Shown: in pieces, positions 11,137 through 47,735 of the stretch
Layout: every line of letters begins with the position of its first letter
How positions within the stretch are numbered: position 1 is the stretch's first letter
NCBI GenBank assembly: GCA_043815185.1
Contig: JBDRJF010000024.1
Coordinates: forward strand, 64,533 to 128,532
DNA from: Candidatus Omnitrophota bacterium
GTDB taxonomy: Bacteria; Omnitrophota; Gorgyraeia; Duberdicusellales; 4484-171
Reading direction: 5' to 3'
DNA: 64,000 nt
Position numbers and translations under genes: made by a program
Notes under the pieces: generated by a model
What the model was told of the DNA's origin: nothing
The model's database searches: none
Seen by the model: only the letters and a program-made list of their open reading frames with translations

Positions 11137-11208
11137 TTGCCCCGTCTGGACTCGAACCAGAAATAGCTGATCCAGAATCAGCCGTGTTACCGATTACACC
11201 ACGGGGCA
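11137..11208 (-). tRNA. tRNA-Gln (anticodon CUG)
   Basis: Full cloverleaf. Acceptor TGCCCCG/CGGGGCA; D stem GTGT/ACAC; anticodon stem GCTGA/TCAGC with loop TTCTGGA; T stem TCTGG/CCAGA with loop TTCGAGT; discriminator A; no encoded CCA. Confidence 0.9.
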
Positions 11209-12632: not shown

Positions 12633-12647
12633 ATCTCGTACAATTCA

Positions 12648-12676
12648 AATATACAATATATATATAGATTTGTCAA
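12648..12676 (-). promoter_or_regulatory. sigma-70-like promoter of the NTase pair
   Basis: On the minus strand: TTGACA (12676..12671), 17 nt, TATATT (12653..12648). Confidence 0.5.
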
Positions 12677-12699
12677 GCCTATTTATTCTCTGGATTTTA

Positions 12700-12856
12700 G
12701 GGGACGGTTCTCGTTGCTCTATCCTTTACTCGCACAACAAGTTATAAACGCAGTATTATAAGTCTTTTTAATTAAGGAAATAAGGCATAAGGGATAATAA
12801 TTGTCTGTTCATAATTAATTGGTGTGTAAGGGGTTACAGGCAAGAGAACCGTCCCC
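12700..12856. mobile_element. MITE-like element, repeat family R1 copy 1 (intact)
   Basis: 157 bp with no ORF. 13-bp perfect terminal inverted repeats GGGGACGGTTCTC / GAGAACCGTCCCC (17 of 18 if extended). Flanked by a direct TTA on both sides (12697..12699 and 12857..12859). Confidence 0.7.
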
Positions 12857-25002: not shown

Positions 25003-25065
25003 GGATTTTTTAATTCGGACCTGTCCCGGATTGAGGGGTTAATGAATATAGCAGGGTGTACCTTT

Positions 25066-25103
25066 GTAGACGTCCTACTTTACCCCCAAAATAGGACGTC
25101 TAC
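25066..25103. repeat. perfect 12-bp hairpin abutting R1 copy 2
   Basis: GTAGACGTCCTA, 14-nt loop, TAGGACGTCTAC. Shares the ACGTCTA core with the conserved R1 segment ...TTTTTACGTCTATTATA. Confidence 0.6.
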
Positions 25104-25117
25104 TTTATTATGTTTTA

Positions 25118-25240
25118 GGGGGACGGTTCTCACTGCACTATCCTTTACCGACACAATAAGTTATAATCACACCATTATAAATTTCTAATTTAATTGAAAG
25201 AAAAATCCTTCTTTTTACGTCTATTATAGTAGAGAAAGGA
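25118..25240. repeat. repeat family R1 copy 2 (left end plus conserved body; right TIR not found)
   Basis: Begins with TTA then (G)GGGGACGGTTCTC as in copy 1. About 110 nt are near-identical by eye to copy 3 (CTATCCTTTAC... CATTATAAAT... CTAATTTAATTGAAAGAAAAA... CTTTTTACGTCTATTATA). Confidence 0.65.
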
Positions 25241-25273
25241 AACTCTTGAATATAATAGGCCACAAATAATAGT

Positions 25274-25360: not shown

Positions 25361-25639
25361 ATGACTACTTTAACAACTACTACAACAAGCAACGCAAAAG
25401 CACATTTTATTGCGATGGTGAGAAAAGCTCATGAATTAGGGCAAACCTACTTAATCACACACCGTGGCGAAGAATCAGCAGTTCTCTTGAGCAGCGAAGA
25501 TTATGAGGGGCTTTTGGAAACTTTGGATATTTTGAAAGACAATAAAGTTGTTGCTTCAATTATGGAATCTCTAAAAGATTTAAAGAGAGCTGAAATCTAT
25601 TCTTTTGAAGATGTTGTTGGACGAAAACAAAAGAAATGA
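25361..25639 (+). CDS. type II antitoxin, Phd/YefM family
   Basis: 92 aa with pattern AKAHFIAMVRKA...TYLITHRGEESAVLLSSEDYEGLLETL. Overlaps the toxin gene by ATGA. Confidence 0.85.
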   Translation: MTTLTTTTTSNAKAHFIAMVRKAHELGQTYLITHRGEESAVLLSSEDYEGLLETLDILKDNKVVASIMESLKDLKRAEIYSFEDVVGRKQKK

Positions 25640-25929
25640 GCCGCTATAATATCTACACCATTTGTTTCACTCGTACCTCAAAAAAACAATTTGAATCTCT
25701 TCCTTCTAAAATCAAAAAGGAAATCGCAAAAATATTAGAGGAAGAAATAGCTCACAATCCTCTATTGGGTAAACCATTACAGGGAGCATTAAAAGGACTT
25801 CGTTCTCAACGAATCGGAAATTTGCGAATAATCTATCAAATTATAAAGAATGAATTGGTCATAATAGTTATAAACCTTGAGCATCGAAAAAAAGTATATC
25901 AAGGGCTTAAATTAAAGAAAAAATGTTAA
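25636..25929 (+). CDS. type II toxin, RelE/ParE (StbE-like) family
   Basis: 97 aa with RIGNLRIIYQI...LVIIVINLEHRKKVY, typical of the RelE/ParE fold. Confidence 0.8.
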   Translation: MSRYNIYTICFTRTSKKQFESLPSKIKKEIAKILEEEIAHNPLLGKPLQGALKGLRSQRIGNLRIIYQIIKNELVIIVINLEHRKKVYQGLKLKKKC

Positions 25930-26983: not shown

Positions 26984-27772
26984 TTAGCTATTTTTAATCT
27001 GATTAAATAATTCCTGGGCTTCCTTAACCGTAGCTCCTTGGTGGATAATAGCTTGCAAACTCTTAGCCATGGCCACCGGATGAATATTCTGCCAAACATT
27101 TCGGCCTAAGTTTATGCCGATAGCTCCTTTCTGCATACCATCGTAAACAAATTCAAAAACCTCCAGTTCATTTTTACACTTTGGCCCACCGGCCATAACC
27201 ACCGGAACCGGGCAGCCATTCACAACTTTATCAAAATCTTCACACCAATAGGTCTTAACTATTCGCGCACCCAACTCAGCAGCAATGCGGCAGCATAAAC
27301 CAAGGTAACGGGCATCCCGTTTGGCTAACTCCTTACCCACAGCAGTAACTGCCATAACCGGAATCCCATACCTCTCGCATTGATTCACAAGATTGGCAAG
27401 ATTTAGCAGAGTTTGACGTTCATAGTCGCTACCGATAAAAATCGAAATTCCTACCGCAGCAGCATTAAGCCGGATAACCTCCTCTAGGGAAGTAGTGATC
27501 TCCTCATTAGCTAAATCTTTGCCGACTATGCTTGTACCTCCGGATACCCTGAGAATAATCGGTTTAGCATTATCAGGATCGACGGCTGAACGTAATACTC
27601 CCCGGGTCACAAACAGGGCATCACAAAAAGGGAGAAGGGGTTTAATTGTCTCCCCGGGTTTTTCCAAACAGCGGGTCGGTCCCTGAAAATAACCGTGGTC
27701 TATCGGTAAGTAAAAACAGTGACCATCGGGTTTGATAACTTGATTAAGCCGGTTTTTCATTCCCCAATCCAT
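26984..27772 (-). CDS. class I aldolase, DhnA/FbaB/LsrF family
   Basis: 262 aa with PIDHGYFQGP near the N-terminus and an IVKTYW Schiff-base lysine region. GAGGAGGTG SD. Confidence 0.75.
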   Translation of the reverse strand: MDWGMKNRLNQVIKPDGHCFYLPIDHGYFQGPTRCLEKPGETIKPLLPFCDALFVTRGVLRSAVDPDNAKPIILRVSGGTSIVGKDLANEEITTSLEEVIRLNAAAVGISIFIGSDYERQTLLNLANLVNQCERYGIPVMAVTAVGKELAKRDARYLGLCCRIAAELGARIVKTYWCEDFDKVVNGCPVPVVMAGGPKCKNELEVFEFVYDGMQKGAIGINLGRNVWQNIHPVAMAKSLQAIIHQGATVKEAQELFNQIKNS

Positions 27773-27779
27773 ATTTACA

Positions 27780-27957
27780 CCTCCTCAATGAGACTTACGT
27801 TTTCTAAAAGAAAACGTGTAGCCGAATTGACTCCGACGAGCGTTGTAAAATTATGGAACACCCTCTGGAATTTTTTATAAAAAATTCCGAGGACCAAGTC
27901 CCGGGAATTTTGTGAATTCCTCGGGGGAATTTTACAACATCTTCTGCGAGCCGGAGT
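27780..27957 (-). repeat. structured intercistronic element, repeat family R2 copy A
   Basis: Helices: ACTCCG/CGGAGT (27830..35 with 27952..57); GTTGTAAAATT/AATTTTACAAC (27842..52 with 27928..38); hairpins at 27862..27892, 27900..27925 and 27797..27817. Ends in CCTCCTCAATGA, the complement of the downstream SD. Confidence 0.7.
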
Positions 27958-27967
27958 ATAAATAAAC

Positions 27968-29458
27968 TTATCCATACCAATAATTTACTAACGGTTTTGC
28001 ATCTTGGGTAGTGTCTACCACAATATTTTTAAGATGGGTATATTCTAATAAACCTTGATCACCCAATTCTTTACCAAACCCGCTTTGCTTAAACCCACCA
28101 TAAGTGAGCTGATTAAAAAACATACCATAAGTATTAATCCAAATTGTTCCGGCATTAATTTTTGTAGCTATATTTTTGGCTTTTTCAATGTCTTGCGTCC
28201 AAATACAGCCGGCAAGAGCAAAATCACTTTTATTGGCTAAGGCAATCGCTTCTTCCACCGTTGAAAACTTACTGACACAAACTATCGGCCCAAAAATTTC
28301 TTCTTGAAAAATTGGCTCCTGAGGCGAAACTTCGGCAAACACTGTAGGTTCAAAAAAGAATCCTTTTTTTAATTCATTTTGCAAAGGGATCTTACCTCCT
28401 GCCAATAACTTCACACCACGAGCCTTGGCCTTCTTTACATAATTAATAACTTTTTCTCTTTGCCATGGTGAAGCCAAGGGGCCCATTTGAGTCTCAAAGT
28501 CCAGGCCGTTACCTAGCTTAATCCGTTTGACTTTATCAAGGAAATTTTTGATAAATTGATTATAAATACTCTCCTGCACTAAAATTCTTGACATTGCTGT
28601 GCACATCTGTCCCTGGTTTAAAAATATAGAACACAGCGAACCATTTACCGCTAGCTCTAGATCGGCATCTTTCAAAATAATACTGGCAGATTTTCCCCCT
28701 AGCTCCATAATCAACTTCTTTACATTCTTAGATGAATACTCTAAAATCTTTTTCCCGACAATATTTGATCCGGTAAATGAAATCATATCTACTCGTTTAT
28801 CGGAACATAACGGCTTACCTACCCCCTCTCCTGTGCCAGAAATGATATTCACTACCCCCTTAGGCAAACCTGATTGGCCAATAATCCGGGCTAATTCCAA
28901 AACGGTAAGAGGAGTTAAGCTTGCGGGCTTTAAAATAACTGTATTTCCGGCTGCTAAACCTTGTGCCAGTTTCCAAGAAGCAATCAAAAGCGGATAGTTC
29001 CAGGGGACGATTAAACCTACTACTCCTCTTGCCTGAGGCAAGAGCTGAGCTTCTGCGGAGGAGCTTTGAAACTGCACCCTTAAAGTTTTGGCTTTTAAGA
29101 TTCTCTCCAGGTTATTACCAAAATATTTAAAAGTTTCAGCAGCAGAAGGTATATCCATAAAAGTTGATTCCTTAAGCGGCTTGCCGGTATTTAAAGTCTC
29201 CATTTCCGCCAGCTCAGCAGCTTTATCTAATATCCCTTTAGATATCTTAAGAAGAAATTCTTTCCTTTGAGTTAAGGAGATATCAGGCCAAGGCCCTTGA
29301 TCAAAAGCAGATCGCGCAGCTTCGATTGCTAAATTTACATCTTCTCGGGAAGCCAAACTAACCTCGGCTATAATTTCTCCGCTGGCAGGATTAATTATCT
29401 TATTTTTCAATTTCGAATCCCTAAATTCTCCGTTGATCCATAGACTATAGGTCTTCAT
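27968..29458 (-). CDS. NAD(P)-dependent aldehyde dehydrogenase
   Basis: 496 aa with a catalytic Glu block (MELGGKSA) and a Cys block (GQMCTAMSR). Confidence 0.9.
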   Translation of the reverse strand: MKTYSLWINGEFRDSKLKNKIINPASGEIIAEVSLASREDVNLAIEAARSAFDQGPWPDISLTQRKEFLLKISKGILDKAAELAEMETLNTGKPLKESTFMDIPSAAETFKYFGNNLERILKAKTLRVQFQSSSAEAQLLPQARGVVGLIVPWNYPLLIASWKLAQGLAAGNTVILKPASLTPLTVLELARIIGQSGLPKGVVNIISGTGEGVGKPLCSDKRVDMISFTGSNIVGKKILEYSSKNVKKLIMELGGKSASIILKDADLELAVNGSLCSIFLNQGQMCTAMSRILVQESIYNQFIKNFLDKVKRIKLGNGLDFETQMGPLASPWQREKVINYVKKAKARGVKLLAGGKIPLQNELKKGFFFEPTVFAEVSPQEPIFQEEIFGPIVCVSKFSTVEEAIALANKSDFALAGCIWTQDIEKAKNIATKINAGTIWINTYGMFFNQLTYGGFKQSGFGKELGDQGLLEYTHLKNIVVDTTQDAKPLVNYWYG

Positions 29459-37825: not shown

Positions 37826-38623
37826 TTACAAAACTGCTACTACCCTGGCCCAGGCAGCACCGGTCTTCTTTATTCTTACTGGGAAACAAATAACCTTAAA
37901 TCCCCAATCCGGCAGCTTAGCCAAATTAGCTAATCTCTCAATATGGATAAACTCCCGCTTTCGGCCATGAAAATGGGCCGGCCAAAGGTGTTTAGGGTCT
38001 TTTGTTTTCAAAAAATCCCCAATCATAAATTTATAAGGCCGGTCAATACCCATAGTATCTACTCCCAATATCTTTACCCCCCGATCAAGAAGGTAGTCAA
38101 TTGCTGAAGGGTCTACTCCCGGATAATCAGAAAAATACTCAGGGCTTCCGAAAAGACGATCTGAACCGGTATAAAAAAGAACGATATCCCAAGGCTTGAG
38201 CAAATAATCAATCTTTTTCAAGGCTTCTTCGATGTCTTGACTTGTAATGACCTGATCAGCTCCTTTGTAACTAAAGTCAAGTTTGACTGCGTCTTGATAA
38301 CACCACTCCAGAGGGATTTCATCGGCCGTCTTCGATGGTTTACCTTCAGATTTACTTCCGTAGTGAAAAGAATAGTCAAGATGAGTTCCGCTATGAACCG
38401 AAGAATGCACTATCTCTAAAGATAAAAACTCTTGATCAGGCAAATCCTCCTTCCTGATTATCCGTTGCCCCAGAAAATACTTAATCTTACCCTTAAAAGT
38501 TTTACCCATCAAAACTCTATTTAACTTGGCAACTCCCTCCTGATGAGACACCCGTTCGATCTTTAAATCATGGACCTCAAAAGCTTTATCATCAATCAAT
38601 AAGCTTAAATCTACTATCTTCAT
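37826..38623 (-). CDS. cyclase-family protein (PF04199-like, kynurenine formamidase/polyketide cyclase fold)
   Basis: 265 aa with an HxGTHxD motif (HSGTHLD). Confidence 0.7.
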   Translation of the reverse strand: MKIVDLSLLIDDKAFEVHDLKIERVSHQEGVAKLNRVLMGKTFKGKIKYFLGQRIIRKEDLPDQEFLSLEIVHSSVHSGTHLDYSFHYGSKSEGKPSKTADEIPLEWCYQDAVKLDFSYKGADQVITSQDIEEALKKIDYLLKPWDIVLFYTGSDRLFGSPEYFSDYPGVDPSAIDYLLDRGVKILGVDTMGIDRPYKFMIGDFLKTKDPKHLWPAHFHGRKREFIHIERLANLAKLPDWGFKVICFPVRIKKTGAAWARVVAVL

Positions 38624-38641
38624 GGTTCTGCTGGTTAATAC

Positions 38642-38890
38642 TTAGCTTAGGCTACCCTCTTTCTTGTTAATTACCTCAACAATCTCATTAAGGGTAGAGA
38701 ATTTTGTAATCTCATTAGTTTCAAGCTTAATACCAAAGCGCTTATTAAAAGCGACTACTAACTCTACCATCTCGGTTGAGTCAACTCCGATAGAGTCATA
38801 TAATTTCTGGCCTTCTTTTATCTCGCTTTCTTCTATATCCAAAGTCTTGCTTATGATTCCAAGGACCTCTTCCTTCAACTCCATAAACAC
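38642..38890 (-). CDS. acyl carrier protein
   Basis: 82 aa with the phosphopantetheine attachment motif GVDSTEMVEL. Confidence 0.88.
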   Translation of the reverse strand: MFMELKEEVLGIISKTLDIEESEIKEGQKLYDSIGVDSTEMVELVVAFNKRFGIKLETNEITKFSTLNEIVEVINKKEGSLS

Positions 38891-38893
38891 CTC

Positions 38894-40129
38894 CTATTCT
38901 TTCTCAATAGCCAAAACAACATTTATCCCGCCCCGCCCTCTGGCAATAATCAAAGCTTTGGTAATTTCTTTCTCTTTCAGTTTATTGGGAGTATAGTCTA
39001 AATCACAATAAAGGTCTCTCATCTCCTGGTTAATCGTCGGCAGAACGATTGAGTATTTCATTGAAAAAAGTGTAACAATTAAATCTAAAGCGCTCTGGGC
39101 CCCGAGAAGATTTCCGTACATGCTCTTAGGCGCACTGAGAACAATTTTGTTTATTTGCTTCCCAAATACATTTTTTAAAGCTGATGTTTCAAGATAATCC
39201 CCGATTACAGTTGCCTCACCATCTAAACAGATATAATCTATGTCTGGCTTATTCCAAGAAGCATCCTTTAGGCATTCCTCTATTGCGTATTCTAACTCCT
39301 CTGATTTAGGACTGTATCTTGAATAGTGTTGTCCGTCGGAAGAGAAACCAATTCCTTTTATAAATCCATAAATCGGCACACCTCTTTTTTTGGCCTTAGA
39401 TTCTTTCTCCAAAATAACTACTCCTGAGCCCTCGCCTAAAACAAAACCATCCCGGTTTAAATCATAAGGTTTGTATGCTGTTTTAGGATTAAGATTATTT
39501 TTTGATAAACTACCGCAAGTATTTGCACTCAATAGAGCATAAGGAGTAATCGGGGCTTCCATGCCTCCGGCTAATACGAAATCATTTTTATCCTGAGCTA
39601 TTATTTTAGAACCATACCATAAACTCAAGGCTGAAGAAGCCTTATCGGCAACAATAGTTTTGCTATAACCTTTGAAGCCGTAATATATAGTAATTTGGCC
39701 CTGGGGAGCTGCCGGAAACCAGGCTGAAGCCATATAAGGGGAAATACCTTCTCTTCCCTCTAGATACATATCTCTTAGCTCAGTCTCAGCAAAGAGCCAG
39801 CCGCCAATAGCATTGCCCATAAATACGCCGACTCGATCTTTATCGATTTTTTCCAAATCCATTCCGGCATCTTCTATGGCTTGTTCTGAGGCAACTAGAG
39901 CCATATGAGAAAACACATCTATTTTCTTAACTAACCTTCCTGAAACATGTGAGTAGTGATCAAGCTCATGGACTTGGCCGGCAATCCGAGAAGGATAAAG
40001 GCTAGCGTCAAACCTCTTGATTTCATCGACAAAAGATGCGCATTTTTTAAGGTTAGCCCAAAAGGTTTCTTTTTTTAATCCACAAGGTGAAACTACGCCG
40101 ACACCGGTTATTGCAACTCTCGGCCCCAT
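38894..40129 (-). CDS. ketosynthase beta / chain-length-factor-like (no active-site Cys)
   Basis: 411 aa, colinear with the adjacent KS, but with Lys at the Cys column (IVADKASSALS) and Asp at the second His column (ICLDGEAT). Confidence 0.75.
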   Translation of the reverse strand: MGPRVAITGVGVVSPCGLKKETFWANLKKCASFVDEIKRFDASLYPSRIAGQVHELDHYSHVSGRLVKKIDVFSHMALVASEQAIEDAGMDLEKIDKDRVGVFMGNAIGGWLFAETELRDMYLEGREGISPYMASAWFPAAPQGQITIYYGFKGYSKTIVADKASSALSLWYGSKIIAQDKNDFVLAGGMEAPITPYALLSANTCGSLSKNNLNPKTAYKPYDLNRDGFVLGEGSGVVILEKESKAKKRGVPIYGFIKGIGFSSDGQHYSRYSPKSEELEYAIEECLKDASWNKPDIDYICLDGEATVIGDYLETSALKNVFGKQINKIVLSAPKSMYGNLLGAQSALDLIVTLFSMKYSIVLPTINQEMRDLYCDLDYTPNKLKEKEITKALIIARGRGGINVVLAIEKE

Positions 40130-40132
40130 TAA

Positions 40133-41380
40133 TTACCTCCACTTCTTAAATACAATCGAAGAATGGATTCCCGAAAATCCACTGCTGGTCTTAAGTATAT
40201 ACTCCGGCATTAATTTCCTCTTTTTATTGGGAATATAATCTAAATCACACTTAGGATCAGGCTCTTCCTGGTTAATCGTCGGTGGAAGATATCCTTTTTC
40301 AAAAATCATACAACATAATACACTCTCTACAGCATTAGCAGCAGCTAAAGGATGGCCGATCATCGATTTAATCGAGCTTATCGGCACCTTATAAGCAAAA
40401 TCTCCTAAAACTTTTTTGTAAGCGTCAGTTTCAAAGACATCATTCTGCCGGGTCGATGAGCCGTGAGCATTTATATAACCAATATCCTCATTCTTTATCC
40501 CTGAATTCTTTATTGCTTCCCGTATAGAACGAGCCATCGGTTCACCGTCTTCAGGCAAATCAGTCATATGATAGGCATTACAACTTGTCCCATAACCAAG
40601 AATTTCAGCATAAATATGGGAGCCTCTCTTCTTAGCATGTTCTAACTCTTCCAATATAAGGATTCCAGCTGCCTCACTAATAACAAAACCATTCCGCTTG
40701 TTATCAAAAGGACGGCTGGCCTTATGAGGTTCCTGGTTATTCTTGGCTAAAACGCTTACCACGTCAAAAGCTCCGAAGGTAATCGGGGTAACCGGAGCTT
40801 CATTGGCTCCGGCAATAATTAGGTCCTGCCTTCCTTCCTGAATAAGCTCATAAGCAAAACCTAAAGAATCAGTTCCGGCAGTGCAACCGGTTGAGACTGT
40901 ACAATTCATTCCCTTGGTCCCATAAATAGCCCCTACCTCTGCGCTGGGAGTATTAAACATAGCAGCATCATAAAGATAAGGCCTTCCCTTCCGGGGATCA
41001 ATCGGGCTCTTACCCCAATCAGTGACTAATAAAAATTCTTCTTCCATAAAACGGGTCCCGCAAATAGCATTGGCTAAGATTACACCACATCTGCGGCGGT
41101 CCAACTTATTAAAATCTAATTTTGCATCTTCCACCGCTCCCTTAGCAGCGGCAATCCCGAATTGAACATACCGATCCATACGTTTATGGTCAGTTATACC
41201 AAACTTTAAAGGGTCGAAATTCAAATCTTGGGAAGCAATCTTTGAAAGGAATAAACTTACATCAAAGTTCTCAACCCTTTCAATACAAGATTTACCCTCA
41301 ATTAGATTGTTGTAAAATTCATTCTTATCTTCTCCGGCTGCGCAGATAACTCCAATTCCAGTAATCACCACTCTCTTCAC
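40133..41380 (-). CDS. ketosynthase alpha, type II PKS-like
   Basis: 415 aa with a GTG start after a GAGGAGG SD. Motifs VSTGCTAGTDS (Cys), CNAYHMT and INAHGSSTRQNDVFET (His/His). Confidence 0.8.
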   Translation of the reverse strand: MKRVVITGIGVICAAGEDKNEFYNNLIEGKSCIERVENFDVSLFLSKIASQDLNFDPLKFGITDHKRMDRYVQFGIAAAKGAVEDAKLDFNKLDRRRCGVILANAICGTRFMEEEFLLVTDWGKSPIDPRKGRPYLYDAAMFNTPSAEVGAIYGTKGMNCTVSTGCTAGTDSLGFAYELIQEGRQDLIIAGANEAPVTPITFGAFDVVSVLAKNNQEPHKASRPFDNKRNGFVISEAAGILILEELEHAKKRGSHIYAEILGYGTSCNAYHMTDLPEDGEPMARSIREAIKNSGIKNEDIGYINAHGSSTRQNDVFETDAYKKVLGDFAYKVPISSIKSMIGHPLAAANAVESVLCCMIFEKGYLPPTINQEEPDPKCDLDYIPNKKRKLMPEYILKTSSGFSGIHSSIVFKKWR

Positions 41381-41388
41381 TTCTCTTT

Positions 41389-41556
41389 CCTCCTCAATGA
41401 TCCGCCTTAGGCGGAGAATTGATCCCGACGAGCGTTACAAAATTGTCGAAGAGAATTTTGTAACATCTTCTGCCCTCTGGAATTTTCCACTGGAAAATTC
41501 CGAGGACTCAGTCCCTGAAATTTCAGCATGTGAAATTTCTAGGGGCGAGTCGGGAT
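41389..41556 (-). repeat. structured intercistronic element, repeat family R2 copy B
   Basis: Outer stem ATCCCGAC/GTCGGGAT (41422..29 with 41549..56) enclosing hairpins at 41434..41464, 41474..41505 and 41513..41544, plus a hairpin at 41401..41415 and CCTCCTCAATGA (41389..41400). Confidence 0.7.
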
Positions 41557-41562
41557 ATATTA

Positions 41563-42168
41563 TTAATCTTTCCTAGCAACTTTAAATACAATGTTCCCGC
41601 CATCCGGGCAGGTTACCGTATCTATAGAATTCTGATTATCCATAAACTGAAATTTTGCTCCAAAATTTAGGGCAAAGAGGGCTGGGAAAGCTGTGTGCCA
41701 GGCTGCTCCGCAGAATCCAGGAATACACTTAAGGCCTTCAATATCCCATTTATCACCAACCTGATACTTATAAAAACACTTAGGCGAAGCCATCCCTTTA
41801 GGGGTACCCTTAGCTTTAATAACCTCAATAACCATCCTCTTGGGGTTCGGGCCCTTATAGTTATGATCTTTAGGAATATTATCGATCTCACCCTGCTTAT
41901 TAAAAATTTCGGCCTTAAACTCTAGTTTCCCGCCATCGGGACAAGTTACTAACAATGACCTTTGATTATCCATAAAAGGGAATTTTGCTCCAAAACTTAA
42001 AGCGTAAATTACCGGAAATAAAGCATGGGCCAGGCCTAAGCAAAAGTGCTTGGGCGGATGGGTAAAATCCTCTAAAATTAATTCATCACCGGCCTTATAG
42101 CCATGGTAACAATCTCCATAAACATTAAGCACTGTTAATTTTAATTTTGGGAAAGGTGTTTTAACCAT
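41563..42168 (-). CDS. tandem-duplicated TIGR04076-like protein
   Basis: 201 aa. The two halves share FC..A....FP...AL.FGAKF.FMDNQ......TCPDGG...FK. The family call is from memory of the CPDG-containing TIGR04076 pattern. Confidence 0.5.
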   Translation of the reverse strand: MVKTPFPKLKLTVLNVYGDCYHGYKAGDELILEDFTHPPKHFCLGLAHALFPVIYALSFGAKFPFMDNQRSLLVTCPDGGKLEFKAEIFNKQGEIDNIPKDHNYKGPNPKRMVIEVIKAKGTPKGMASPKCFYKYQVGDKWDIEGLKCIPGFCGAAWHTAFPALFALNFGAKFQFMDNQNSIDTVTCPDGGNIVFKVARKD

Positions 42169-42169
42169 A

Positions 42170-43165
42170 TCAGATCTCCATTTCTTTTAATAATTCTCCC
42201 TTTTCAAAAAACTTTTTTGACTCCTCTACTCTATGAACTAATTCAACTATTTTACTATTTAGCCGGGCCTTAAGATTATTTTCAGAAGCTATTCTTACAA
42301 TTTCTCCGTTGATATAATCAATCTCTGAAGGCTTACCACTCTTTATGCTTTGTAATATTGAACCGTAGAGAGGTTCTTGGCTTAAAGAGGCCATTACTTT
42401 TGAAAAAATACCGGCAGCTTGTTCTATGTCCATTGAAACTAATCCCTCTAATCTGGCCTTAGGATAACTAGGCAAATCAGCTAACTCTATGCCGCTATTT
42501 TTAACAACATTGAATGCCTCTTTATTTAGTTTTATTGCCAGTTTTGCGAAATTTATATCAGCAAAGGCCTCCTGCATCGATAAACCTAAAATTGCCGGAA
42601 TACAATTATTGAGATTAATCAATAGCTTAAGGTATTTAGCCCCTTTTATTTTGTCTAAAACTGCTAGATCAAAAGCCGATTTTAAAAGGCCGGCTACCTC
42701 CTCTATATTGGCTACTTCTTGCTCAAAGATATTCCCTAATATTAAGTTACCTTTAAAATTATGAACTATTCTGTTCGGCCGGTAAAAAGTTGCTCCAAAC
42801 ATCACAATACCGGTTATAATCTTCTCTTTAGGAAAATACTCACTCAATATATAATCAGCTCTTATTCCGTTCTGAGTACTAAGAATAGTCGCATCTTTTA
42901 AATATTTTAAATTTTCCTTTATTAAAGCCTCTAAATCACCTAACTTGCTGGCGAGAATAGCCAGGCCTACTCTCGCTCCAAGTTTATTATCAACTCTTAC
43001 CTTATAGGTATCTTTACCTCTTGAGCCCTCAATGAGTAAACCCTTCTTAAGTAAAGGCTCCTTCTGGTAATCCTTAACTATACCAATAACATCAATATTC
43101 GCTCCGGAGAGATAGCCTAAAAATAATCCGCCAATTGCTCCACAACCTAAAACTGCTACTTTCAT
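42170..43165 (-). CDS. 2-dehydropantoate 2-reductase (PanE/ApbA) family oxidoreductase
   Basis: The Rossmann N-terminus MKVAVLGCGAIGG sets the start at 43165; the tracked start at 43204 adds 13 unlikely residues. Confidence 0.75.
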   Translation of the reverse strand: MKVAVLGCGAIGGLFLGYLSGANIDVIGIVKDYQKEPLLKKGLLIEGSRGKDTYKVRVDNKLGARVGLAILASKLGDLEALIKENLKYLKDATILSTQNGIRADYILSEYFPKEKIITGIVMFGATFYRPNRIVHNFKGNLILGNIFEQEVANIEEVAGLLKSAFDLAVLDKIKGAKYLKLLINLNNCIPAILGLSMQEAFADINFAKLAIKLNKEAFNVVKNSGIELADLPSYPKARLEGLVSMDIEQAAGIFSKVMASLSQEPLYGSILQSIKSGKPSEIDYINGEIVRIASENNLKARLNSKIVELVHRVEESKKFFEKGELLKEMEI

Positions 43166-43169
43166 TTTT

Positions 43170-43448
43170 CTACTTCTCTTGACTAATATATTGTGAATAA
43201 TCAATATTTAATTGGCTAAGTAGCCTCACAAGCATACCTTTGAAGGCCGGAGGAACCTCCTGGAAGAAGGCAACAATTAAATCTTTATCCTCAACTTCTT
43301 TAGAATCTCTTGCCTTAGCTAACTGTTCAGACTTTTGCTTAATAAGTTGCTCAGCAATTGTTCTATGAAATTGCGGTAAATTCTCAATTATCCGATCAAA
43401 CTTACTCTTGGTTTCTCGGTTCCAGTTAACTTCCATAATACCTTCCAC
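43170..43448 (-). CDS. small helical protein, PCP_red-like (protochlorophyllide reductase B C-terminal-like) domain
   Basis: 92 aa. The W-x2-E...LPQFHR...E..A pattern resembles PF08369. Tentative. Confidence 0.35.
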   Translation of the reverse strand: MEGIMEVNWNRETKSKFDRIIENLPQFHRTIAEQLIKQKSEQLAKARDSKEVEDKDLIVAFFQEVPPAFKGMLVRLLSQLNIDYSQYISQEK

Positions 43449-47498: not shown

Positions 47499-47547
47499 GG
47501 TGATTCTTCCTCCGATAAGGTAAAATAAAGTGCCTAATCCAGACACC

Positions 47548-47587
47548 TACGCGGTGCAGATAAAAGAATTACTCTACCCACCGCGTA
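47548..47587. repeat. 9-bp hairpin abutting R1 copy 3
   Basis: TACGCGGTG, 22-nt loop, CACCGCGTA. It holds the same position relative to the R1 left end as the hairpin at 25066..25103. Confidence 0.5.
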
Positions 47588-47592
47588 TCTCA

Positions 47593-47735
47593 GGGGACGG
47601 TTCTCGTTACCCTATCCTTTACCCGCACAACAAGCTGTAAACACACCATTATAAATATCTAATTTAATTGAAAGAAAAAACTTTCTTTTTACGTCTATTA
47701 TAATAAGAGAGGTAAAAAAGAGGAGGGGCGTCCCC
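47593..47735. mobile_element. repeat family R1 copy 3 (left TIR intact, right TIR reduced to CGTCCCC)
   Basis: Starts GGGGACGGTTCTC and ends ...GGGGCGTCCCC. Flanks are TCA and TAA (both TNA). The body is near-identical by eye to copy 2. Confidence 0.65.

Follow-up and report, generated by a model that had tools for sequence, protein, structure and literature searches.

Passages of PMC2817692, PMC3337134 and PMC3733652 describe the repeats of the REP/BIME/REPIN group as short imperfect palindromes, extragenic and present many times per genome, which form inverted pairs and often lie within operons; mRNA stabilisation is among the roles proposed for them there. MITE-like repeats (ERIC/IRU, Correia/NEMIS, BOX, RUP and RPE) are presented in parts of PMC3184786, PMC10969869 and PMC2229807 as non-coding units of 100-200 nt, co-transcribed with their neighbours, modular (BOX A/B/C) or internally inserted (ERIC) and variable in presence between strains. 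The present work concerns a structured intergenic element in the DNA of a Candidatus Omnitrophota bacterium (assembly GCA_043815185.1, contig JBDRJF010000024.1, positions 64,533 to 128,532). The whole stretch analysed, 64,000 nucleotides long, is called the window, and all coordinates refer to it. The element occurs there twice, as copy A and copy B.

In REP/BIME/REPIN systems the number of repeats exceeds 100 copies per genome, and the cognate RAYT, a Y1 HUH transposase, is typically flanked by repeats. The sub-terminal hairpins of IS200/IS605 elements are imperfect, contain extrahelical bases and are read as single-stranded DNA; insertion of these elements is duplication-free and strand-biased. 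Nested small dispersed repeats of cyanobacteria comprise very small palindromic units inserting into one another and into hairpin loops.

Copy A is best explained as belonging to a modular family of palindromic repeats dispersed through intergenic DNA (REP/BIME- or MITE-like), transcribed as an intercistronic hairpin block; the rough probability given to this reading is 75%. The element consists of a shell and a core. The core is separable from the shell, the family is dispersed and modular, and its elements are gained and lost at the DNA level, as presence and absence at orthologous sites demonstrate. Of the known systems, the element works most like REP/BIME/REPIN and the RNA-folding MITE-type repeats (ERIC, Correia, BOX).

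Shell and core of the two copies

The element is read on the minus strand, which is the sense strand, all genes around copy A being on this strand. Copy A fills the 195-nt gap between an aldehyde dehydrogenase gene (Aldedh, 27968-29458) and a DeoC/LsrF-type aldolase gene (26984-27772). Copy B lies between a 201-aa open reading frame (ORF) without Pfam match (41563-42168) and a ketosynthase (KS) gene (40133-41380) and takes up the whole of the intervening 182 nt. The parts of both copies are the following (A3 is the shell alignment and R1 the covariance model of the core).

27785..27959, minus strand: copy A, whole composite (shell and core), 8 nt from the Aldedh stop codon (27970-27968) and 12 nt from the aldolase ATG.
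27950..27957, minus strand: 5' strand of shell helix P1a in copy A, ACUCCGGC, pairing with 27837-27830; five of its eight pairs are double-changed across 15 shells (A3 columns 3-10 with 58-65).
27946..27947, minus strand: 5' strand of shell helix P1b in copy A, GC, pairing with 27841-27840 across a conserved UC/UC internal loop (A3 columns 13-55 and 14-54).
27939..27945, minus strand: conserved 5' bulge or junction of copy A, AGAAGAU (family consensus UAAGAU), from the shell alignment.
27928..27938, minus strand: 5' strand of shell helix P2 in copy A, GUUGUAAAAUU, pairing with 27852-27842, here over a long range (A3 columns 22-32 with 43-53).
27862..27925, minus strand: core of copy A, two mirror-image hairpins within the P2 loop (A-type); R1 73.9 bits, E 3.9e-17, reverse strand 48.8 bits.
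27900..27925, minus strand: core hairpin H1 of copy A, CCCG-(A bulge)-GGAAUUC...GAAUUCC-CGGG, called the third hairpin in the original prediction; from the core alignment.
27893..27899, minus strand: core junction of copy A, ACUUGGU; the family consensus, flanking hairpin bases included, is GGGAC-UNNR-UCCUC (copy comparison).
27862..27892, minus strand: core hairpin H2 of copy A, CCUC-GGAAUUUUUU...AAAAAAUUCC-(A bulge)-GAGG; from the core alignment.
27842..27852, minus strand: 3' strand of shell helix P2 in copy A, AAUUUUACAAC, from shell covariation.
27830..27837, minus strand: 3' strand of shell helix P1a in copy A, GUCGGAGU, from shell covariation.
27785..27830, minus strand: shell hairpin P3 of copy A, proximal to the Shine-Dalgarno sequence (SD), UCAAU-UC-GGCU-ACGUUUUC...GAAAACGU-AGUC-UC-AUUGA; the same P3 subtype occurs at the unrelated locus L006.
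27780..27786, minus strand: native SD of the aldolase gene, GAGGAGG (ATG at 27772-27770), abutting copy A and outside the element; element-free relatives keep AGGAGGTGTAAAAATGG.
41394..41558, minus strand: copy B, whole composite (B-type), with the core (41544-41474) between P1 and P2.
41556-41549 / 41429-41422, minus strand: P1a of copy B; 41464-41454 / 41444-41434: P2; 41422-41394: P3.

The predicted RNA folds are strong, with -65.6 kcal/mol (z -6.0 versus shuffles) for copy A and -74.3 kcal/mol (z -7.1) for copy B. Neither promoter nor terminator was found inside the element on the sense strand. The original prediction had placed the element at 27780-27957, where it is indeed found, its true extent being slightly larger (27959..27785).

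The core has the form 5' CCCN-(bulge)-stemA-loop-stemA'-N'GGG AC UNNR UCCUC-stemB-loop-stemB'-(bulge)-GAGG 3' and measures 64 nt in copy A, 71 nt in copy B and 60-80 nt in the family. Each of its hairpins (H1 of 25-28 nt and H2 of 26-34 nt in most copies) has a conserved G+C base of 4 bp, one bulged base and a freely re-spelt A/U stem of 7-12 bp; stems A and B are spelt in many ways between copies, with complementarity kept. Thirty distinct copies were aligned with MAFFT without fitting to structure: 98.7% of cells are paired, against 14-66% in slid controls, and 10 of the 23 pairs are changed on both sides. Double-change cells number 61 versus 15.9 in shuffles, and none of 500 shuffles is as high.

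Covariance model R1 finds exactly two cores in the window, 27925-27862 (73.9 bits) and 41544-41474 (63.7 bits), and scores the opposite strand of either at about 49 bits. Since both strands are scored, H2 is an inverted H1 and the core is pseudo-dyad-symmetric. Chain variants with at least three core-type hairpins in succession and GGGAC-N3-GUCC junctions were seen at L029, L031, L041, L046, L068, L075, L095 and L133; R1 matches overlap there on alternating strands.

The shell is about 110 nt long and ends with UCAUUGA in the window copies (UCAUURA in the family) directly 5' of the gene's own SD. Its 5' half comprises P1a (8 bp), the UC/UC internal loop, P1b (2 bp) and the 5' bulge UAAGAU. The A/U-rich P2 of 11 bp with the loop CUNUUCGAY is followed by the 3' strands of P1b and P1a, then by YAAUUC, the long variable hairpin P3 and UCAUURA. 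About 18 shells of one type were collected by an nhmmer profile of the 3' half (from the P2 3' strand via P1' to YAAUUC). Fifteen were aligned with MAFFT after excision of the core, again without fitting to structure: 96.1% of cells are paired (35-50% in slid controls), 11 of 19 pairs have double changes, and 50 double-change cells compare with 12.9 in shuffles, none of 500 being as high. In P2, six of eleven pairs are double-changed, with all four Watson-Crick types at three positions. P1b is Watson-Crick paired in 15/15 shells, A-U/G-C and U-A/C-G alternating. Both modules thus show strong covariation.

An inner P3 consensus, AAYUUAYGUC...UCCRUAARUU, was observed in most shells (L001a, L001b, L012a, L012b, L047, L080, L105, L112, L126 and L143); P3 of both window copies belongs to other types. 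P3 itself may be a third exchangeable module.

The differences between the copies listed in the original prediction are real. The outer stem ACUCCG/CGGAGU of copy A (27957-27952 / 27835-27830) corresponds to AUCCCG/CGGGAU in copy B, i.e. to two adjacent compensatory pair changes. H1 is re-spelt around the same bulge, which is T on the plus strand used in that prediction and A on the sense strand: CCCG-A-GGAAUU.../...AAUUCC-CGGG in copy A and CCCU-A-GAAAUUUC/GAAAUUUC-AGGG in copy B. In the SD-proximal hairpin, ACGUUUUC/GAAAACGU of copy A stands against UCCGCC/GGCGGA of copy B. The block CAGAAGAUGUURYAAAAUU, with exactly two occurrences in 64 kb (0.08 expected by chance; 0/100 shuffles with two), lies 5' of the two central hairpins in copy A and 3' of them in copy B, and the helix GUURYAAAAUU/AAUUUURYAAC is accordingly long-range in copy A and local in copy B. 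Pairing kept over diverged sequence, proposed from two copies, is found across the family, the observed values being reached in 0/500 shuffles for core and shell alike. The relocated helix strand is another matter: the shift of position is correct, while the idea of a rearranged RNA is replaced by that of a separate two-hairpin module of about 65 nt at two places in a homologous shell.

Dispersal, modularity and empty sites

Once the core has been taken out, A-type shells can be aligned with B-type shells over their full length, and the shell closest to that of copy A is the one of copy B (77% identity). The sole architectural difference between the copies is the position of the core, in the P2 loop (A) or between P1 and P2 (B), which explains the apparently relocated strand. 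Two layouts recur among the collected loci (handles L001 and so on).

A-type: core inside the P2 loop, after AAAAUUCY; window copy A, L105, L126, L063, L064 and L080; H1 begins CCCGRG in 6/6.
B-type: core between the two P1b pairs (CUCR/core/UAAGAU); window copy B, L012a, L001a, L112, L092, L047 and L073b; H1 begins CCC(U or C)AG in 7/7.

In A-type copies the P2 loop regains its consensus CUNUUCGAY when the core is removed, as in L105 (CUAU/core/UCUAC) compared with L112 (CUAUUCUAC). The shells of L105 (A-type) and L112 (B-type) are 94% identical, and both loci come from the same groundwater well. Like L001, L012, L080, L092 and L126, they originate from the Hainich groundwater wells. Shells without core occur at L001b, L012b, L006, L146/L147 and L073a, and cores without this shell, within CAAT-rich palindromes, at L005, L006, L010 and L013. 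Cores stand in tandem in L013, one core lies within the loop of another in L003, and L011 has shell and core in opposite orientation. The core can therefore be regarded as an insert separable from the shell, which docks preferentially at two sites. The CAAT-rich palindromic repeat around the cores of L005, L006, L010 and L013 (AAUAACCAAUAAUCAAGAUACAAG...) hints at additional shell families in other lineages.

When one genome per species was scanned for the most conserved hairpin as an exact pattern, 16 loci were obtained, including 14 true copies, in Candidatus Omnitrophota, Candidatus Ratteibacteria and further metagenome-assembled genomes (MAGs), with up to five true copies in one fragmentary MAG. 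The shell is recognisably homologous in the Ratteibacteria-type copies. Metagenomes were scanned with the junction and one closing strand (GGGACU-N2-4-UCCUCG...CAGAGGG), which gave at least 120 loci; about 55 true copies were counted among the matches listed, the others being G+C-rich chance matches. The family is abundant in Omnitrophota and Ratteibacteria as well as in metagenomes from groundwater or sediment. Across the collected loci R1 detects about 80 cores, with two to four in several loci; the density in the window is two copies per 64 kb. The junction-pattern scan of viral contigs gave two chance matches only. At gathering thresholds tRNA was the only Rfam match in the whole window, and copies A and B gave eight sub-threshold, chance-level matches at E up to 10, the best being RsaA (24 bits against a gathering threshold of 50, E 0.04). 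No paper describing repeats in Omnitrophota was found in the searchable literature, and the repeat family appears to be undescribed.

The aldolase downstream of copy A is an LsrF-like thiolase; an exact-sequence look-up of the protein returned no record, and its best relatives, 87% identical, belong to Candidatus Omnitrophota, so that the window is assigned to this phylum. The closest relatives share the operon (IF-2B, class II aldolase, Aldedh with 85% identity, DeoC and ADH), and their Aldedh-DeoC gap is only 20 bp (GGATAG TCTAATTAGGAGGTGTAAAAATGG); in further relatives it is 41 or 55 bp. At the same site L143 carries a degenerate coreless shell and L146/L147 a complete coreless one. R1 finds no core in the relatives' loci L139-L143. 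Some of the short spacers resemble shell ends: L139 3982-3999 reads AGTCTAATTA versus AGUCUCAUUGA of the element, and L144 2460-2500 reads TTCCCTCGC...TCATTAA. From this resemblance, such spacers may be remnants of deleted shells and not naive empty sites.

At the copy B site, three relatives (KS 91%, 86% and 86% identical) have no intergenic DNA at all, the upstream ORF overlapping or abutting the KS start. Comparison with these sequences identifies copy B as an insertion of about 180 nt immediately in front of the native GGAGG; the ORF upstream has lost about three codons, and its stop now lies in the A/T-rich 5' end of the element. Presence/absence polymorphism is thus observed at orthologous sites. 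The possibility that the element brings its own SD, considered as only these two window genes have UCAUUGAGGAGG, was rejected: SD and spacer are native at both sites, since element-free relatives have the same ones.

Genes following the shells are unrelated and include aldolases, KS, a flavodoxin-like protein, a response regulator, PfkA, RibH, CarA, a GTPase and membrane proteins; multi-copy loci adjoin housekeeping genes. The shells occupy the gap between their flanking genes completely. The copies examined closely lie between ORFs, while crude ORF calls put some inside ORFs, which were set aside as probably spurious. Gene-specific regulation is not supported, because the downstream genes are diverse and the element is absent from the nearest orthologous operons.

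Likeness to known repeats, upkeep and rival explanations

The core resembles REP/BIME/REPIN repeats in being a head-to-head pair of hairpins of 26-32 nt, i.e. short imperfect palindromes with units in inverted orientation, and a short conserved GUCC(U/C) beside each core stem (GGGAC...GUCCUC) recalls the REP tags. Unlike these repeats, the core has neither a GTAG nor a CGTC tag, and a search of its flanks (941 kb in all, about 8 kb at each locus) revealed no RAYT; both hairpins have a bulge at a fixed place, the pair sits inside a larger shell of marked orientation, and the hosts belong to other phyla. Modularity, RNA foldability and presence/absence polymorphism are shared with ERIC-, Correia- and BOX-type repeats. 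In contrast to MITE-like repeats, neither long terminal inverted repeats nor a TA-type target duplication were recognised, helices are re-spelt between copies and not merely decayed, and no parent IS is known. The elements are therefore filed as a new family and not as members of a named one, given the lack of a GTAG/CGTC tag, of terminal inverted repeats with target duplication and of a RAYT tied to them. IS200/IS605 hairpins provide a mechanistic analogy only for core movement, no TnpA/TnpB gene being associated with this family. The cyanobacterial nested repeats are likened by description only, sequence and host being unrelated.

No target-site duplication was found at the core boundaries in two comparisons (paralogues L012b and L012a; the loop of L112 and L105). 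Because this paralogue comparison shows no duplication, the units could be assumed to move or be copied by a hairpin-dependent, duplication-free mechanism, as in REP/REPIN-RAYT and IS200/IS605 systems. A TAAGT duplication considered at copy A (...CGUAAGUCUCAUUGA) is the element's own P3 strand and is present in the unrelated locus L006. P1 forms an inverted repeat of 8 bp, but a variable and covarying one. The elements would persist in very short spacers of compact operons and be co-transcribed; the transcript would fold, immediately in front of the ribosome-binding site native to the following gene, into an intercistronic hairpin block of high stability. If there is any effect, it would most probably be segmental mRNA stabilisation or insulation, with translation uncoupled. 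Specific regulation by the element is unlikely.

The base pairs themselves show no asymmetry specific to RNA (G-U greatly exceeding A-C on the transcribed strand) in shell, core or P3. In the covarying helices, G-U and A-C number five each among 315 shell cells and five versus four among 680 core cells, and the P3 hairpins have G-U in 7/306 pairs on the sense and 11/321 on the antisense strand. The complementarity is strictly Watson-Crick and strand-symmetric, which fits palindromes maintained or copied as DNA, e.g. by hairpins read as single-stranded DNA or by arm-to-arm templated correction. The original prediction had argued for selection on structure; such selection at the RNA level is not demonstrated, since G-U about equals A-C and DNA-level upkeep of palindromes accounts equally for the data. 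In 14 of 16 composites the antisense RNA folds more stably than its sense counterpart, a result given little weight because the gain comes from G-U pairing of A/C-rich junctions and not from the covarying helices. For cores in co-directional contexts, 15 are sense and 9 antisense (p = 0.31), and the downstream gene shares the strand of the core in 28 cases versus 14 (p = 0.04), both counts resting on crude ORF calls.

Several observations weigh against the interpretation as a dispersed repeat. A purely selfish-DNA reading may be incomplete, because the strong sense bias of the shell and its conserved unpaired bases are traits of functional RNA. Shells are sense-oriented in 14/15 cases relative to the downstream gene and in 14/16 relative to the upstream gene. 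Unpaired junction bases (UAAGAU, UC/UC, YAAUUC and UCAUUGA) are conserved between very different helices. The combination of terminal inverted repeat and target duplication typical of MITEs was not found. No transposase was seen by eye between paired copies, and no Y1/HUH transposase was detected within 3 kb of cores, the HUH...Y motif filter leaving 5/187 flanking ORFs, all of housekeeping families. A tblastn search with E. coli RayT over the 941 kb of flanks gave nothing better than E 1.4, a weak test with flanks of about 8 kb at each locus. Copy numbers per genome are extrapolated, and the effect on mRNA is entirely inferred.

The same sense orientation (14/15) and conserved junction bases, together with the covariation of P1b in 15/15 shells, favour a general-purpose functional RNA leader. 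Selection at the RNA level would here act on the shell, whether or not it contains a core, as a portable module between cistrons, duplicated because it is useful, e.g. as a 5' stabiliser against RNase Y/J-type decay, a processing site or a translation insulator. Such a role could also account for the position of the shell 3' end, UCAUURA, at -1 to +13 nt from a long-ORF start in 13/18 shells, often flush with GGAGG, and the window contains a gene for RNase Y. The sense bias of the shell can be due either to strand-specific insertion or to selection on the transcript. Yet a selected leader agrees poorly with the missing wobble asymmetry and the better antisense folding, as well as with the weak strand bias of cores alone; the element is dispensable at both orthologous sites, and the SD is the gene's own and remains unsequestered. 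Tight flanks would be expected in any case, as these compact genomes leave few bases between genes. This explanation is tentative and considered improbable, though it deserves to be kept in mind. A dedicated cis-regulatory RNA of the aldolase and KS genes (riboswitch, attenuator or thermometer), implied by the original prediction, would explain a strong, covarying fold directly upstream of both start codons. However, the family precedes many unrelated genes, the same operons of the nearest relatives lack the element, no Rfam score is convincing, no sense-strand terminator or promoter lies inside, and the SD is outside the helices; this reading is largely refuted and very unlikely.

Small ribozymes often occur as dispersed repeats, and a dispersed, intercistronic, sense-oriented multi-helix junction with conserved unpaired nucleotides could suggest a new self-cleaving or otherwise catalytic RNA which cuts polycistronic transcripts between cistrons. 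This is highly improbable in view of the absence of an Rfam match to a known ribozyme class, the lack of G-U enrichment and the ability of the core to work in either orientation and position. A pseudoknot between J12 and the P2 loop (GAAGA:UCUUC) fits copy B but is not kept in other copies, which counts against catalysis as well. Integron attC sites, bulged hairpins read as single-stranded DNA by a tyrosine recombinase, likewise conserve structure over sequence and have conserved and extrahelical bases, free central stems and strand bias, and one XerD-like gene lies near one copy (L014). An attC-type site is nevertheless scarcely credible: the flanks are conserved housekeeping operons and not cassettes, the core sites GTTRRRY/RYYYAAC are absent from copies A and B, the Pfam summary of window proteins contains no integrase among the matches listed, and the unit is two hairpins instead of one. 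That the 66-aa ORF at 27775..27975 is a real small protein gene has practically negligible probability. The ORF exists, but it is coextensive with the repeat, has no Pfam match and is missing in relatives, and other copies have indels and other frames; as stated in the original prediction, it is the element in translation.

Neighbouring genes and biological meaning

The window is ordinary chromosome with genes for GatA/B, Dxs, GltX, TsaD, RNase Y and others; its tRNA gene is located at 11137-11208 (minus strand). Copy B belongs to a type II polyketide/fatty-acid-like cluster (37826-43204, minus strand; 86-91% identity in Omnitrophota), which comprises an ApbA-like reductase, the 201-aa ORF and two KS genes, followed in the relatives L151 and L153 by ACP, cyclase and polyketide cyclase. 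Within the 201-aa ORF (41563-42168, minus strand) a direct repeat recurs at a distance of about 330 nt (families D10 and D13), and the C-terminus CPDGGNI(V/K)FK is kept in relatives; judging from the repeat, the protein may be a duplicated small domain. Just downstream of the operon orthologous to that of copy A, the closest relative carries ParE/PhdYeFM toxin-antitoxin and HEPN AbiU2 genes (L139 7013-8652), the window counterpart of this position being two small plus-strand ORFs (25361-25929).

Another repeat family, probably the one called R1 in the original prediction and distinct from core model R1, occupies three large gaps at the heads of minus-strand gene runs (12640-12830, 25060-25250 and 47535-47725, minus strand). 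It consists of a TATAAT-like box followed by a conserved stretch of about 60 nt (UUAUAACUUGUUGUGCGGGUAAAGGAUAGNGCAACGAGAACCGUCCCC) and has no Rfam match at E up to 1. This family could be a shared promoter with leader, or a small RNA.

Compensatory changes seen on comparing two copies are a classic sign of functional RNA, but they can stem from a dispersed palindromic repeat. They should therefore be weighed against the spread of the family, the occurrence of empty orthologous sites and the asymmetry of wobble pairs. For annotation, R1-type models would keep such elements from being called small ORFs or novel riboswitch candidates. In the case of copy B, an insertion of 180 nt split a translationally coupled pair in a type II polyketide-like cluster but destroyed neither gene.

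There is also a rather doubtful view in which the two modules differ in nature, the shell being a phylum-wide RNA device, a portable leader docking onto ribosome-binding sites, and the core a separate colonist at two sites within it. If this were true, the shell would set the stability, processing or translational independence of the downstream cistron, and the core would be a single-strand-DNA parasite or a protein-binding platform. Shell and core would then make up a host/parasite system of two tiers, consisting of non-coding elements, in a phylum that has no cultured members.

As for the family of dispersed palindromic repeats, its unusually clean architecture, with two nested modules, two fixed docking sites, free stems and bulges at fixed places, lends itself to the study of how small hairpin repeats move when no transposase is visible, and suits equally the question of what small hairpin repeats do to operon expression.

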